NCBI GenBank assembly: GCA_032027005.1
Contig: JAVSMW010000015.1
Location: 10,354 to 42,353, forward strand
Length of the DNA stretch: 32,000 nucleotides
Reading direction: 5' to 3'
From: Thermincola sp.
Lineage (GTDB): Bacteria > Bacillota > Thermincolia > Thermincolales > UBA2595
The position numbers and the translations under genes are program-made. Below, piece after piece: positions 9,996 through 31,538 of this stretch (within the stretch, counting starts at the first letter, position 1; the number at the start of each line of letters is the position of its first letter). Below the pieces are notes generated by a model. The model ran no database searches and was not told where the DNA came from. It saw nothing but the letters and a program-made list of their open reading frames with translations.

Positions 9996-10877
9996 ATGAA
10001 AGATATTAGGTTTGTTATTGTGACAGGACTTTCAGGGGCCGGGAAAACTCAGGCAATCCGCGGTTTGGAGGATCTGGGATTTTTTTGCGTGGACAATCTT
10101 CCGCCAACCTTGATCCCCAAATTTGCCGAGCTCTGTGCACAATCTGAAGGCAGGGTTAATAAGATAGCATTGGTGGTAGACATCAGGGGCGGCGGTTTTT
10201 TCGATTCTGTTTACGAATCCCTGGAAAGCCTTAAAAGTTTGGGTATAAAATATGAAATCCTGTTCCTGGAAGCATCTGACGAAACCTTAGTCAGGAGGTT
10301 TAAGGAATCAAGACGGAGACATCCCCTCAGTGACAAGGGGAGTACTCTCGAAGGTATTCTTAAAGAGAGGGCCAGACTCGAGGAACTGAAAGGTAAGGCT
10401 CACAAGATTATTGATACATCTAACCTTACCAATAAGCAATTAAAAGAACAGATCACTTCCATATACGGGGCCGCCAGTGGGGAGCAGAGGCTTAATATCA
10501 CCCTGATGTCTTTTGGATATAAATATGGGATCCCCCTGGATTCAGACCTGGTATTTGATGTTAGGTTTCTTCCCAACCCTTACTATATTGACGAGTTAAG
10601 ACCCCTGACAGGTAATGATTTAGAGGTTCAAAGATATGTTATGGACTCACCTGTCTGCAAAACCTTTATGCGTAAATTTTCGGGTTTGATAAATTTTTTA
10701 ATACCTCATTACATCAAAGAGGGCAAAACAAATTTAACCATAGCCATTGGCTGCACCGGCGGCCAGCACAGGTCGGTGACACTGGCCAATAAACTGGCTG
10801 AAATCCTGGATACTAAGAATTACAATGTCAATAAACGGCACCGGGATATAGAGAAATTATCTGCAGGAGTGTCATAA
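9996..10877 (+). CDS. rapZ: RNase adapter protein RapZ / YvcJ-type nucleotide-binding protein
   Basis: [30 protein letters not shown]; [19 protein letters not shown]; [17 protein letters not shown]; RBS ggtggag. Confidence 0.95.
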
Positions 10878-19127: not shown

Positions 19128-19904
19128 ATGCGCAAACCCATCATCGCGGGGAACTGGAAAATGCATAAAACTGTACAAGAAGCCAAAGCACTAGTCACTG
19201 AACTCAGCGCCGAGCTAAAAGATGTCGGTGATGTTGAAATAGTCGTTTGCCCGCCCTTTACGGCCCTGAATGCTGTGCTTGCCACCGCCCAGGGGACAAA
19301 TGTCGCCGTAGGGGCGCAAAATATGCACTGGGAAGACCAGGGGGCCTATACCGGCGAGGTTTCACCGGTCATGCTCAGGGAAATGGGCTGTAAATATGTA
19401 ATTATCGGCCATTCTGAACGCCGGGAATATTTTGCCGAAACTGACGAAAATGTTAACAAAAAAACCAAAGCCGCCTTCAAACACGGCCTGCTGCCTATTG
19501 TTTGTGTCGGAGAAAAGTTAGACCACAGAGAACAGGGGATCACTGAGCAGATTGTTAAAGCTCAGGTCCAAGGCGGCCTTGCCGGCCTCGAAAAAGATCA
19601 GGTGGCCCAGCTTGTGGTGGCCTATGAGCCAGTTTGGGCCATCGGCACGGGTAAAACAGCTTCTGACGATGACGCCCAACAGGTCATTGGTTTTATCAGG
19701 GGCGTTATCACAGAGATGTACGGTCAGGAACCGGCTGGACAGGTTCGTATTCAGTATGGCGGCAGTGTCAAGCCTGATAACATTTCCGGATTGATGCAGC
19801 AAAAAGACATAGATGGCGCCCTGGTAGGCGGTGCCAGCTTAGATGTCCGGAATTTTGCCGGGATTGTTAAACGTAGTGGAGAGTGGAGAGTGGGGAGTGA
19901 GTAG
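19128..19904 (+). CDS. tpiA: Triosephosphate isomerase
   Basis: MRKPIIAGNWKMHKT; VIIGHSERREYF; VAYEPVWAIGTGK; IQYGGSVKPDN. The ORF track start (19056) lies inside pgk; ATG 19128 is the likely start. Confidence 0.97.
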   Translation: MRKPIIAGNWKMHKTVQEAKALVTELSAELKDVGDVEIVVCPPFTALNAVLATAQGTNVAVGAQNMHWEDQGAYTGEVSPVMLREMGCKYVIIGHSERREYFAETDENVNKKTKAAFKHGLLPIVCVGEKLDHREQGITEQIVKAQVQGGLAGLEKDQVAQLVVAYEPVWAIGTGKTASDDDAQQVIGFIRGVITEMYGQEPAGQVRIQYGGSVKPDNISGLMQQKDIDGALVGGASLDVRNFAGIVKRSGEWRVGSE

Positions 19905-19979
19905 TGGGTAGAAAAAAGGCGAGTTAGGGAACACTAACCACTGACCGCTCACCACTCATCACTCACCACTCCCCACTAC
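19873..19979. repeat. GTGAGTAG-type imperfect palindromic repeat (tpiA 3' end / gpmI upstream)
   Basis: GTAGTGGAGAGTGGAGAGTGGGGAGTGAGTAGTGGGTAG ... ACCACTGACCGCTCACCACTCATCACTCACCACTCCCCACTAC form largely complementary arms. Confidence 0.8.
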
Positions 19980-25313: not shown

Positions 25314-25360
25314 GCAAATAGATTGAGGGTGCAGAGGAATCTGCACCCTCAATTATTTGC
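25314..25360. terminator. Strong hairpin downstream of hppA
   Basis: ATTGAGGGTGCAG (25322-25334) / CTGCACCCTCAAT (25341-25353), extended by GCAAAT/ATTTGC; 6-nt loop. No clear T-tract. Confidence 0.6.
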
Positions 25361-25382
25361 GATGCATGCTATGTGCATGCAG

Positions 25383-25490
25383 GTGAAAATGCCCTCTGGC
25401 TTCGTTGCGCTGGCCGACCCAATCCTCAACGTACAACTAGTACGCCTCCGGTTGGGTCGGCCAGTGCGCCTTGCCAGAGGGCATTTTCAC
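25383..25490. repeat. Long hairpin element, copy A of a two-copy family with a conserved tip
   Basis: 18-bp perfect stem GTGAAAATGCCCTCTGGC/GCCAGAGGGCATTTTCAC; 12-bp stem TGGCCGACCCAA/TTGGGTCGGCCA; tip AATCCTCAACGTAC aacta GTACGCCTCCGGTT. Confidence 0.85.
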
Positions 25491-25542
25491 ACCTCTGGGT
25501 CGGAAATTTGGCCAATAATATTTATGCAAGATTCTTTGGTAA

Positions 25543-25880
25543 CTCAGCTAAATTTTTGCTTACCAGTGAATCCGAGCAGTTATTACCGTTTGCGGAAGTT
25601 TCCCTTGGGCGGCATCGTTATGAATCTTGCTGTAAAGCGGAGAGCAGCAAGCCGGGGAGTCCCCGTATGTCCGCAGACGGCGAAGGCCGCCGGGAAGTTT
25701 CGCTGGCTATAATCGCGAAATGGGAGGCGGCCCTCTCATAAGGAATGCATTCTGAGCCGTCAAGTTCGGGGACGCCGGCTTGCTGCCGGAGCTTTACAGC
25801 TAGATGAATAGATGCCGCCCTAGGAAACTGGAGCAAACGGTAATACCTGCGGTGGATTATGGTGAGCAGAAAATTGAGGG
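25543..25880. repeat. Large imperfect palindrome (about 330 nt), non-coding
   Basis: Paired blocks 25581-25593/25833-25845, 25597-25603/25823-25829, 25607-25616/25811-25820, 25629-25638/25791-25800, 25644-25655/25775-25786, 25659-25665/25767-25773, 25685-25691/25726-25732 and 25698-25703/25715-25720; apical loop 25704-25714. Confidence 0.85.
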
Positions 25881-25908
25881 AAGCTAAGAATAATCTTAAG
25901 CCCAACAC

Positions 25909-25937
25909 TTGCTTTCAACAAACTGCCGGGTTATAAT
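25909..25937 (+). promoter_or_regulatory. Putative SigA promoter for gntR (-35 TTGCTT, 17 bp, -10 TATAAT)
   Basis: TTGCTT 25909-25914; TATAAT 25932-25937. Confidence 0.55.
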
Positions 25938-25940
25938 ATA

Positions 25941-25964
25941 AGTGTATTAGTGTACTAGTACAGC
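25941..25964. promoter_or_regulatory. Putative operator for the adjacent GntR/YtrA-type regulator
   Basis: AGTGTATTAGTGTACTAGTACAGC contains repeated GTRYTAGT half-sites and the palindrome GTACTAGTAC, just downstream of the -10. Confidence 0.45.
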
Positions 25965-25981
25965 ATGAGGAGGCGGAGCAG

Positions 25982-26371
25982 TTGTGGTTTCATGTTGATC
26001 CCTCAAGTGGAGTGCCGATATATTTACAGATACTTAACCAGGTGAAACGAGCGGCTGCTTCAGGCATGCTCAAACCCGGAGACCAGATGCCTTCGGTGCG
26101 GGAACTGGCTACTGAACTCACCGTAAACCCCAATACCATTGCCAAAGCTTATCGGGAACTGGAACGCGACGGGGTGATTAAGACAGTACGCGGTGTAGGC
26201 ACCTTCGTGGCTGAAACAGAAGTTAAAATTGTCCATGAGGAACGGGTCAAGGTTATTTATAATGCCATTGACAAAGTACTTGTCGAAGCCCATTACCTGG
26301 GATTTAACGAAAATGAGGTCAGACAGTTTATAGATGATCGCATCAGGGAATGGAAGGAGAGGAAAAAGTGA
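25982..26371 (+). CDS. GntR family transcriptional regulator, YtrA-like (short C-domain)
   Basis: PIYLQILNQVKRAAASGMLKPGDQMPSVRELATELTVNPNTIAKAYRELERDGVIKTVRGVGTFVAE; RBS GAGGAGGCGG before TTG. Confidence 0.92.
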   Translation: MWFHVDPSSGVPIYLQILNQVKRAAASGMLKPGDQMPSVRELATELTVNPNTIAKAYRELERDGVIKTVRGVGTFVAETEVKIVHEERVKVIYNAIDKVLVEAHYLGFNENEVRQFIDDRIREWKERKK

Positions 26372-26529
26372 TGATGGAAATTGCTATAAAAACCAGCGAG
26401 TTAACCAAAAGCTATGCCGTCATTCAGGCTATTAATGGTCTGAATCTGCAGGTTAACAAGGGAAGTATATACGGTTTCCTGGGCCGGAATGGGGCAGGCA
26501 AAACTACTACTATCGGTAATGTTGTTTGA
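26371..26529 (+). pseudogene. Truncated ABC transporter ATP-binding protein (ends just after Walker A)
   Basis: MMEIAIKTSELTKSYAVIQAINGLNLQVNKGSIYGFLGRNGAGKTTTIGNVV*; start overlaps the gntR stop; no Q-loop, signature or Walker B follows. Confidence 0.85.
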
Positions 26530-26535
26530 GAAAAA

Positions 26536-26751
26536 ATGAAAAGTGCGTTAGCTTCCATCTTTACCGTGTTTTTGCTGCAAATATCATCTTGGCTGCCGTT
26601 CTCAAAAAAATTCTCAATTTTTTATCATATGTCAGGGCCGGGGATTTATTCCGGACATGGCTTCCCGTATATAACCCTGGTGGTTTTGGCAGCAATATCG
26701 GCACCACTTTACTATCTTGGCAGAACGAGATTTGTGAGCAGGGACTTTTAA
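26536..26751 (+). pseudogene. Probable C-terminal remnant of the ABC permease partner
   Basis: MKSALASIFTVFLLQISSWLPFSKKFSIFYHMSGPGIYSGHGFPYITLVVLAAISAPLYYLGRTRFVSRDF; hydrophobic C-terminal segment followed by a basic RFVSRDF tail typical of ABC-2-like permeases. Confidence 0.45.
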
Positions 26752-26810
26752 AACCATGGCTGGAATGGAAGAGTCAGGTTTGTTTACCGTTAATGAAAAG
26801 GAGGGGCATT

Positions 26811-27692
26811 ATGACAATCTATAAACCGACACCAGGTAAAGGATTTTTTTGGAGCGTTATTTTTATGATATTTGTGACCGGTGCTGTGGCTGCGCCTCTG
26901 ATAATCAGTACAGTCAGCGGCACGCCGCGGCTGGAGTTCCAGCTTATCATGGGTGGGGTCCTGGTATTGGTCCTGGGGATTTTTGGATATCTGGCCTGGA
27001 CGGCAAAAAATCTCACGTATGAGATTAATAAGGAAAACATGACAATTAAATGGGCTTTTAACAGGAAGACTATACCACTGACCAGTATCAAAGGCATTAA
27101 CCGGGTGGTTGGCAATAGTGCCACCAAAGTAGTAGGGGCCAGTCTGCCGGGTTTGCATATCGGGTCCTTCACCAGTCCAACGGGAAAAGGCTCAATAAAT
27201 CTTTTTGCCACCAGGCTATGGGGAGAAATCCTGCTTATCCGGACCAAATGGGAATTAATCGGAATTACCCCGGAAAACCCCGAAGAGTACCTGGAAGAAT
27301 TGTCTGCCAAAGTACCAGGCCTTAACTCTGACGGCCTGGCCGGTTTAGATCATAATCCCGCACCTTTTTCGCCCTGGCAGGCAAAACACTTCCTGGCCGT
27401 GATGGGCTTAACGGCAGCGACCATAATTGGTACAGGAATATACCTCTTGAAAACTATTCCAGCCCTGCCGGCAAAAATCCCAATGCACTATGATTTTTAC
27501 GGTCAGGTCAACCGCTATGGCTCTCCCAGTGAATTATGGGTAATTTATGGGATTGGGGTTGGCATAGTGGCTTTCATGATAATCCTCATGAGCACAGTTG
27601 TCAGAAACAACCGGACATCAGCATATTTGATGGCTTATACGTCGCTATTCATTGCCATCTTGTTTTCGGTAATCAGTATAGCTATTGGATAA
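26811..27692 (+). CDS. Membrane protein with bacterial PH-like region and DUF1648-like C-terminal part
   Basis: ORF 26526-27692; ATG 26811 with AGGAGGGG. LTYEINKENMTIKWAFNRKTIPLTSIKGINRV is PH-like; LPAKIPMHYDFYGQVNRYGSPSE is DUF1648-like. Confidence 0.75.
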   Translation: MTIYKPTPGKGFFWSVIFMIFVTGAVAAPLIISTVSGTPRLEFQLIMGGVLVLVLGIFGYLAWTAKNLTYEINKENMTIKWAFNRKTIPLTSIKGINRVVGNSATKVVGASLPGLHIGSFTSPTGKGSINLFATRLWGEILLIRTKWELIGITPENPEEYLEELSAKVPGLNSDGLAGLDHNPAPFSPWQAKHFLAVMGLTAATIIGTGIYLLKTIPALPAKIPMHYDFYGQVNRYGSPSELWVIYGIGVGIVAFMIILMSTVVRNNRTSAYLMAYTSLFIAILFSVISIAIG

Positions 27693-27696
27693 GAAG

Positions 27697-27774
27697 TGAC
27701 CTGTTGTTAGTGGCGATTTGACAAGTGAGAGGCGATCTTCACTAACCACTCGCCCTAACAACTAACCACTAAAA
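27697..27774. repeat. Palindromic repeat of the ACTAACCACTCGCC / GTTAGTGG type
   Basis: GTTGTTAG (27703-27710) / CTAACAAC (27754-27761), and AGTGGCGA / CGCC..ACCACT. Confidence 0.6.
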
Positions 27775-27785
27775 TGTATTTTCTG

Positions 27786-31009: not shown

Positions 31010-31058
31010 CTCTGAGAATGATGAATGACTTTCATTCTTACTTTAAAAGTTTTTGCTA

Positions 31059-31179
31059 GGCTGTTCAAAAGCGAGCATAGCTAGGAGCCATTTGTGTCGG
31101 AACCGGAGGCGTACTGGGTATGTACGTCGAGGATTACGGCACAAATGGCGACAACGCTAGGCGACGCTTTTCAACAGCC
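31059..31179. repeat. Long hairpin element, copy B (inverted relative to copy A)
   Basis: GGCTGTTCAAAAGCG (31059-31073) / CGCTTTTCAACAGCC (31165-31179), 14/15 paired; GCCATTTGTG (31087-31096) / CACAAATGGC (31140-31149); tip AACCGGAGGCGTAC tgggtat GTACGTCGAGGATT. Confidence 0.85.
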
Positions 31180-31187
31180 GTAAACAT

Positions 31188-31538
31188 GGGGGTGTAATGG
31201 TTTCGACGGGGGAAGAATAAACACAATAAGCGAGCCGGGATCCCACAGGCCCGTTAAACAGTGGAACTTAAATTAAACGCTAAAAACGATTTAGCTTACG
31301 CAGCTTAATTGCTGCTCACCTCTCTGCTTCTGTGCTCTGTGTGAGGCAGATGAGGTCATTTAACAGAGCTGGCTGACCCCCAATTCTCGGAGGGGTGACG
31401 CGAGATTTATCGAGATAGTGAGCCGGTAGCCTGTCGGTAGGCGATTGGTGAGCGAAATTTAAAATACTCGACTACGCTCGTAGAAGGTTGTGTGGGTTCT
31501 CTTTCGGACGCGGGTTCGACACCCGCCACCTCCACCAA
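31188..31538 (+). ncRNA. ssrA: tmRNA (transfer-messenger RNA)
   Basis: 5' GGGGGTGTAATGGTTTCGAC; 3' GGGTTCGACACCCGCCACCTCCACCA; 7-bp acceptor pairing GGGGGTG / CACCTCC with encoded CCA; tag reading frame ending GCTTACGCAGCTTAA. Confidence 0.96.

Follow-up and report, generated by a model that had tools for sequence, protein, structure and literature searches.

In the 32,000-nt window analyzed here, the genes eno, hppA, a GntR regulator, a bPH_5/DUF1648 protein, rnr, smpB and ssrA follow one another in this order, and the source genome belongs to the Bacillota and is close to Phosphitispora (SmpB 92-93% identical). Two copies of a long palindromic element, referred to here as copy A and copy B, lie downstream of hppA and between smpB and ssrA, respectively. 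Copy A (25377-25496, + strand) is located ~70 nt 3' of the hppA stop codon, past hppA's own terminator, a terminator-like hairpin on the same strand (25322-25353) with a 14-bp perfect stem followed by TTATTTG, which lies outside the element and is conserved in a related locus, L128. The outer stem of copy A is formed by the + strand arms GTGAAAATGCCCTCTGGC (25383-25400) and GCCAGAGGGCATTTTCAC (25473-25490), each 18 nt long and 100% complementary to the other, in agreement with the perfect 18-bp stem of the original prediction. Above this stem lies a second module, in which a TTC loop and GTT on the 5' side (25401-25406, + strand) stand opposite CGC CTT (25467-25472). It is followed by an inner arm pair (25407-25422 and 25452-25467, + strand; 16 nt, 94% complementary) and by the apical module (25421-25453, + strand). 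The latter reads AATCCTCAACGTAC-AACTA-GTACGCCTCCGGTT, and folds with closing pairs AAUC/GGUU, a 5x5 internal loop CUCAA x CCUCC and, at its top, a CGUAC/GUACG helix capped by the loop AACUA. The complete fold of copy A has a free energy of -82.3 kcal/mol (z = -10.7 relative to shuffles), and a short T run is present in the 3' arm.

Copy B (31056-31184, - strand) is oriented opposite to copy A and occupies most of the smpB-ssrA spacer, where it is antisense to both genes. Its match to the family model (see below) stops 4 nt before the adjoining tmRNA gene (ssrA, 31188-31537, + strand; Rfam RF00023, 193.4 bits), while its outer stem stops 8 nt before. The apical module of copy B, AATCCTCGACGTAC-ATACCCA-GTACGCCTCCGGTT (31101-31135, - strand), matches the tip pattern, and differs from the tip of copy A by one change (A to G) and by its 7-nt loop. 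The claim that the reverse complement of 31101-31135 matches 27 of 28 tip bases of copy A was therefore confirmed by the sequence. When folded separately, the two strands of copy B reached -56.6 and -66.6 kcal/mol (z = -7.0 and -7.7, respectively).

We compared the occurrence of the tip with that expected by chance. The pattern AATCCTCRACGTAC-N3..14-GTACGCCTCCGGTT is present twice in the window, while 100 dinucleotide shuffles gave a mean of 0.00 matches and never 2. A covariance model (R1), built from a Nitrospira-only alignment that did not include the window copies, found copy A at 66.5 bits (E = 4e-15) and copy B at 56.5 bits (E = 1.6e-12), with all model positions (1-129) matched in both. 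The reverse strands of copies A and B scored ~17 bits with this model, and the search found no third copy in the window. If copies A and B were ordinary gene-specific terminators, or chance palindromes sharing a short motif, their 3' or intergenic positions and the short T run in the 3' arm of copy A would be readily understood. However, this explanation is refuted by the shuffles, by the model E-values and by the size of the family (at least 120 loci with the tip, almost all of them with the full architecture), and we attach next to no probability to it. A simple consensus terminator scan of the window called neither copy, and the element lacks terminal inverted repeats with a target-site duplication, in line with the view that it is neither a plain terminator nor a simple MITE.

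We scanned a collection with one genome per species for the tip pattern CCTCRACGTAC-N3..14-GTACGCCTCC. At least 120 loci in at least 8 phyla matched, mostly in Nitrospira/Nitrospiraceae, a number far above the two copies of the original prediction. Among the matches listed, the other loci belong to Methylomirabilota/Rokubacteria, Desulfobacterota, Planctomycetota, Acidobacteriota, Gemmatimonadota, Eisenbacteria, Spirochaetia and Bacillota. Four matches (L017, L067, L112 and L118) lie inside genes without a hairpin and look like chance; in almost all others listed, single-sequence folds placed the tip at the center of a ~125-nt hairpin. Nitrospira loci contain up to 5 copies per 8 kb, and a rough extrapolation from these extra copies suggests that Nitrospira genomes may carry a few hundred copies each. 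Several Nitrospira copies were found at contig ends, where a repeat that interrupts assembly would be expected to lie. On viral contigs we observed 4 pattern matches, of which the model confirmed only one (L122, 32.8 bits), and BLAST searches of plasmids with copy A and with the tip returned nothing significant. As a separate observation, open frames derived from the repeat (e.g., ...ESKPEAYPQGYVEDFDEPRTKLA...) in 16 Nitrospira loci, L006 and L011 among them, group together and mimic a protein family, and such frames are likely called as spurious ORFs in metagenome-reconstructed genomes.

Searches for an earlier description of the element were negative. No Rfam family matched it at either of the thresholds used: with Rfam 15 at the gathering score, the window and 10 related loci yielded the tmRNA only, and scans of copy A and one Nitrospira copy at E-values up to 10 returned only noise, consisting of miRNA and sRNA models that scored 12-28 bits compared to cut-offs of 45-109. 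A literature search with the tip string, in both DNA and RNA spelling, retrieved unrelated primers only, and keyword searches for Nitrospira repeats, REPIN or RAYT did not turn up a report of this kind of element. The hairpin family is apparently undescribed.

The secondary structure of the family was derived from an alignment (A2) of 39 Nitrospira-type copies. Since RNAalifold applied to a plain MAFFT alignment recovered the inner helices only, the structure was curated by hand and with a covariance model, resulting in 45 pairs arranged in five helices with 3x3 and 5x5 internal loops. Within this Nitrospira set, 89.4% of cells were paired, compared to 32-44% when the partners were slid, and both sides had changed at 29 of the 45 pairs; none of 500 shuffles matched the observed values. 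A second set comprised 42 model matches from the window and from loci outside the main Nitrospira set. In the alignment of this set, which was fitted to the model and hence favors the structure, 85.2% of cells were paired (31-39% when slid), 39 of the 45 pairs had changed on both sides, and most pairs showed all four Watson-Crick types. Single-sequence folds gave the same hairpins as this model-fitted, cross-phylum alignment. Thus, the stems remain complementary as predicted, with 85-89% of cells paired in the two sets versus 31-44% when slid, demonstrating that pairing within the hairpin is kept by selection while the stem sequences drift. The original prediction had named a restriction to two copies, a lack of covariation and a match to a known family as grounds for abandoning the claim of a new element family; none of the three was found.

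Conservation differs between parts of the hairpin. The CGUA/UACG pairs of the apical helix are invariant in every family member examined, and the 5x5 loop CUCRA x CCUCC is near-invariant together with its closing C-G and U.G pairs, consistent with the predicted fold of the tip as a CGUAC/GUACG helix plus an internal loop. In the second module, all 39 Nitrospira copies share the same G-C, U.G and U.G pairs, and conserved islands (5' CNNCGTT and 3' GCCTNG) lie ~20 nt from the tip on each side across phyla. The ends of the element pair with each other, yet they are its most variable part. TGAAAA...TTTTGA tracts are present in the outer stem of the Nitrospira and window copies, which also contain a run of 4-5 Ts inside the 3' arm after the GC-rich inner stem; U-tracts are absent from the Rokubacteria, Desulfobacterota and Clostridia versions. 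The outer stems of copies A and B had been considered non-homologous. Instead, they are diverged homologues, as indicated by the end-to-end alignment of both copies to the Nitrospira-only model, by the shared TGAAAA/TTTT tracts and by the second loop module.

Several other interpretations of the sequence were rejected. The idea that the outer stems represent host terminators with a core inserted in their loop was discarded, given that identical outer-stem sequences were found at several loci unrelated to one another. We likewise rejected a coding function: although open frames cross the element on both strands, the tip varies in length from 27 to 31 nt by non-multiples of three, and a Pfam search of the frames found nothing. 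Resemblances to a K-turn, a sarcin-ricin loop, an anti-Shine-Dalgarno sequence and attC, each of which was compared by eye, were unsupported.

The two strands of the hairpin provide conflicting signals. The strand bearing CCUC displays three conserved U.G pairs and matches the sense of the gene at whose stop codon the element sits; in unidirectional contexts, this orientation outnumbers the opposite one by 30 to 11 among the matches listed. In contrast, thermodynamics and wobble asymmetry point to the strand bearing GGAGG, which was the more stable RNA in 101 of 108 copies among the matches listed (median 8 kcal/mol), with DNA parameters showing the same trend. At variable stem positions, mismatches that are G.U on the GGAGG strand exceed the reverse by 57 to 14, and every internal loop on this strand is purine-rich, with possible tandem G.A pairs. 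In addition, A-tracts and U-tracts flank the GC-rich inner stem on both sides in the Nitrospira and window versions, as is the case for bidirectional terminators, but are missing from the versions of other phyla.

We next consider the position of the element relative to genes. Among the matches listed, a stop triplet lies exactly at the 5' edge of the hairpin in 56 of the 103 copies with enough upstream sequence. Forty-four of these 56 edge stops terminate ORFs with 100 or more codons (30 TAG, 11 TAA and 3 TGA). In 44 of the 103 copies, the first base of the element thus directly follows a genuine stop codon, which is TAG in most cases. Real TAG/TAA stops amount to ~8% of the TAG/TAA triplets outside ORFs in the same Nitrospira loci, and this background implies a 5-10-fold excess at real stops, which is more than expected from a simple TAG/TAA target. 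Copies away from gene ends have no TAG at the boundary among the matches listed. As for the neighboring genes, 76 of the 119 copies listed have a same-strand gene upstream, and the downstream neighbor is co-directional in 43 and convergent in 48 of them. Neighbor strands among these 119 copies were (+,+) in 30 cases, (+,-) in 26, (-,-) in 11 and (-,+) in 3, with divergent gene pairs flanking only 3.

The 3' end of ftsH offers a comparison of filled and empty sites. In the filled sites (L100, L045 and L129), a 128-nt element starts on the base after ...MDKY-TAG, whereas the empty sites (L130-L134) encode the same C-terminus followed by TGA, TAA or TAG; in one of these (L131), downstream synteny is kept with a spacer of similar length. 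These findings indicate that insertion took place exactly 3' of the native stop codon, leaving the protein unaltered and generating no target duplication. The flanks of the copies, in which the original prediction had proposed to look for a target-site duplication, agreed with the ftsH comparison in showing none: the 3' flank contains neither a direct repeat nor a conserved base. A TA target-site duplication was rejected on the basis of both results.

Presence of the element varies among relatives of the window. Three loci with SmpB 92-93% identical to that of the window (L125-L127) are without copies A and B, while L128, the closest relative (SmpB 95% identical), has both. Copy A of L128 is decaying, with a score of 26.9 bits and a mutated tip, and copy B of L128 is separated from that of the window by two compensatory double changes and one wobble change. 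On the metagenome contig L141, a copy-A-like element (50.9 bits) lies behind a tRNA gene and its terminator. Near-identical full-length (master) sequences are shared by different loci and by different genomes of Nitrospira, copies are kept at orthologous sites across Nitrospira species, and truncated copies are present in L011 and L060. Taken together, these results demonstrate both the multiplication of the element within genomes and its long-term retention at orthologous positions.

Individual loci display further features of the family. In L127, a 92% relative, the smpB-ssrA spacer (10466-10552) contains a short hairpin with ~25 nt that match one arm of copy B (AAGGATGTTTAGAAACGAGCATAGC); this stretch may have been left behind by a deletion, or it may represent a precursor of the element. 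L068 (5130-5561) contains three tandem copies with the variant tip helix CGTAGC/GCTACG in place of CGTAC/GTACG (the fifth pair is swapped), and the outer-stem A/T tracts of this variant subfamily have the opposite polarity. In some Nitrospira copies (L038 3266-3461, L080 4928-5123, L091 1610-1805, L010 703-897; L030 112-286, L034 6427-6597 and L044 6822-6997), conserved apical inserts of ~67 nt (GGGGACCCGGCCGCC...) or ~45 nt replace or extend the apical hairpin; these inserts may represent nested small elements or an expanded apical domain. Finally, L043 (6162-7071) contains a riboflavin synthase gene positioned exactly between two inverted copies, one of which ends at the first ATG of the ORF, while the other begins at its TAA stop codon.

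The window contains other palindromes and insertions as well. A larger palindrome (25579-25855, + strand), ~80 nt 3' of copy A, forms a ~275-nt hairpin with a branched top; the stretch 25600-25830 folds at -124 kcal/mol (z = -8.7), and the palindrome has no Rfam match. L128 has an 84% identical version of this palindrome, which differs by 9 or more compensatory changes, and two or more other metagenome loci (L135/L140 and L141) have versions with 86-89% identity. Based on this recurrence, it looks like another mobile palindrome family of the lineage. An intergenic hairpin at 19875-19978 has 18-nt arms (19889-19906 and 19960-19977) that are 83% complementary, and a 40-nt match (85%) to 19875-19914 lies 5 nt from the larger palindrome in L135 and L140. 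The closest relatives have no GntR regulator and bPH_5/DUF1648 genes (25853-27775) in their orthologous region. The positions that match 25852 and 27776 of the window are joined across ~48 nt in L136 and L138, indicating that the window carries a 1.9-kb insertion right after the larger palindrome.

As for a protein partner, all-against-all clustering of the ORFs in ~120 loci of up to 8 kb each revealed no shared protein near the copies: the largest cluster was the repeat's own spurious translation, and the others consisted of histidine kinases, ABC ATPases and TPR proteins. A regular expression for the HUH/Y1 motif gave no credible match over the same loci. The Y1/TnpA-like processing enzyme that the original prediction had proposed to look for was not found near the copies in these loci, nor was a TnpA gene or a recurring integrase or recombinase.

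With respect to the overall claim, the family of single-strand-folding hairpins with a conserved tip and co-varying stems was upheld, but the description of the stems as non-homologous was not. The element clearly behaves as a mobile intergenic repeat at gene 3' ends, which places it near REP/TRIT-like elements rather than among stand-alone regulatory RNAs. The family is nearest in behavior to REP and TRIT, the latter compared by description only, and appears to correspond to the definition of neither. Similar to REP, BIME and REPIN sequences, it consists of multi-copy intergenic palindromes in unidirectional or convergent contexts that are rarely divergent (3 of the 119 copies listed), and it shares with REPs the G.T pairs in stems and the long-term vertical persistence (PMC3733652). 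In GTAG REPs, the neighboring gene often ends in the TAG at the REP edge (Di Nocera et al. 2013, PMC3733652). At the edge of the element described here, the base before TAG is mostly T, A or C, and not G, among the matches listed. REPs are 20-40 nt in length, lineage-specific and conserved in head and stem, whereas the element is ~125 nt in length, conserved in its tip and found across phyla. Its arms, in contrast to those of REPINs, are not themselves palindromes: isolated 5' and 3' arms folded no better than shuffles (z = +0.2 to +1.0), which argues against a REPIN dimer. A genome carries a single RAYT copy, and the ~120 loci of up to 8 kb contained no RAYT gene.

TRIT is a conserved palindromic hairpin with ~147 copies, found in Mycobacterium only (Gardner et al. 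2011, PMC3152330). It is mostly bidirectional and tightly tied to gene termini, where it occupies a very narrow position around -8 from the stop codon and thus overlaps with the end of the coding sequence; binding of the conserved motif by a dsRNA-binding factor was proposed in the same study (PMC3152330). The element resembles TRIT in being a hairpin with a narrow stop-codon placement, a resemblance that is functional only and taken from the description of TRIT. It differs from TRIT in that it spans many phyla, begins on the base after the stop codon, and combines variable stems with an invariant tip.

Elements of the MITE and insertion sequence type provide a second group for comparison. ERIC/IRU, Correia, RUP and BOX are imperfect palindromes of ~100-130 nt in transcribed intergenic regions; ERIC-type MITEs have size variants with internal insertions, and both of their strands can fold. 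The element is similar to ERIC-type MITEs in size, in its internal-insert variants and in having two foldable strands. However, terminal inverted repeats are conserved in MITEs, and their insertion duplicates the target site (TA in the case of ERIC and Correia), whereas the element has variable ends, a conserved center and no duplication. Like IS200/IS605 (TnpA, Y1/HUH), it inserts just 3' of a short motif without duplication and displays an orientation bias; the likeness in dependence on a folded single strand is, for the element, a predicted one. The ends of IS200/IS605 contain two separate subterminal hairpins 10-20 nt from the cleavage sites. In the derived elements (PATE), two such hairpins lie in direct orientation, and insertion occurs 3' of a fixed target of 4-5 nt without duplication, with which the insertion of the present element 3' of TAG/TAA is compatible. 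Unlike both IS200/IS605 and PATE, the element is one long hairpin with a recognition-like module ~50 nt from both ends. Finally, a canonical intrinsic terminator consists of a short GC-rich hairpin with a U-tract directly behind it; the Nitrospira and window versions of the element contain a 4-5 T run inside the 3' arm, past a GC-rich inner stem, and versions from other phyla do not.

We also considered whether the hairpin represents a ssDNA recombination site of the attC or IMEX kind, upon which a site-specific recombinase would act in the folded strand. The conserved unpaired bases and strand-specific features of the hairpin would fit such a site, and the element occurs in phyla known to be rich in integrons. 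However, attC sites carry their R''/R' core sites (RYYYAAC / GTTRRRY) at the base, have a variable tip, and form same-orientation arrays near intI. The element instead has a variable base and a conserved tip, and is scattered in both orientations beside housekeeping genes rather than in same-orientation cassette arrays. Together with the absence of a recurring integrase or recombinase from the neighborhoods described above, these differences make a recombination site very unlikely.

A different possibility is that the element is a cis-acting RNA of mRNA 3' ends, i.e., a TRIT-like terminator (factor-assisted or bidirectional) or a stabilizer of 3' ends, whose tip binds a conserved host RNA-binding protein; mobility would then be secondary, and multiplicity would result from selection for function after each gene. 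Strong covariation and conserved internal loops agree with this explanation, as do the persistence at orthologous sites across Nitrospira species, the narrow stop-codon placement with its avoidance of divergent promoter regions, and the 30 to 11 preference for the CCUC sense in unidirectional contexts among the matches listed. The A-tracts and U-tracts around the GC-rich stem in the Nitrospira and window copies and the apical-loop expansions, which are typical of RNAs, point in the same direction. TRIT itself combines the same narrow stop-codon placement with a proposed dsRNA-binding factor (PMC3152330), and the excess at stop codons reported above would also fit selection for an RNA function. 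Nevertheless, the terminator of hppA itself precedes copy A in the window, copy B is oriented antisense to both smpB and ssrA, neither copy was called by the simple terminator scan, and the decay of copy A in L128 argues against local constraint. Moreover, the Rokubacteria, Desulfobacterota and Clostridia versions have no U-tracts, the strand of higher stability is in most cases antisense to the gene next to which the element lies, and near-identical stems at unrelated loci require copying, and not selection alone. We therefore regard a primarily cis-acting RNA as possible but rather doubtful.

We favor, with a probability of roughly 0.6, the explanation that the family represents a ~125-nt non-coding, non-autonomous mobile palindromic repeat, whose tip is read by a factor, and which hosts tolerate as a 3'-end hairpin. 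The element is a long imperfect hairpin of five helices parted by small conserved internal loops, and the observations above show that it inserts into the 3' regions of genes, generates no target duplication and very often begins directly behind a TAG or TAA stop codon. According to this mobile account, the nearly invariant apical module, comprising the CGUA/UACG helix and the CUCRA x CCUCC loop (GGAGG x UYGAG on the other strand), would serve as the recognition site for a trans-acting factor. This factor would most likely be the enzyme that mobilizes the element from a folded single strand. Hosts may tolerate or exploit the element as a hairpin at 3' ends, which could be either bidirectional and terminator-like or RNA-stabilizing; it is plausible that this role is a lineage-dependent by-product. 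Copy A would accordingly represent a well-preserved insertion behind the hppA terminator, and copy B an older insertion between smpB and ssrA.

Several observations argue against the mobile account. The ~120 loci contain neither a recurring neighbor protein nor a Y1/HUH-like ORF, and the conserved tip lies ~50 nt from either end of the element, whereas known transposases recognize element ends or subterminal hairpins. The size of the excess at real stop codons, the lack of TAG at the boundary of copies away from gene ends among the matches listed, the conflicting strand signals and the fitting of the cross-phylum alignment to the model also weigh against it. A more specific version of the mobile account would be a stop-codon-homing element, whose tip is read on the folded single strand by a putative enzyme that spreads horizontally across at least 8 phyla. 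We consider this specific version unlikely. If true, such an element would supply genes with 3'-end hairpins by targeting the nucleotide right after the stop codon.

To our knowledge, most palindromic repeats of intergenic regions, REP, ERIC and TRIT among them, do not extend beyond one genus or family, and the spread of most of them is unexplained. In the family described here, a 24-base apical motif is nearly constant from Nitrospira to Clostridia, while the remainder of the hairpin drifts by compensatory change. The covariance model could be used to mask a repeat that breaks Nitrospira metagenome assemblies and yields spurious ORFs. The nearly constant tip provides a sharply defined bait for finding the partner protein, and the family as a whole represents a tractable case for learning how repeats pick gene ends.
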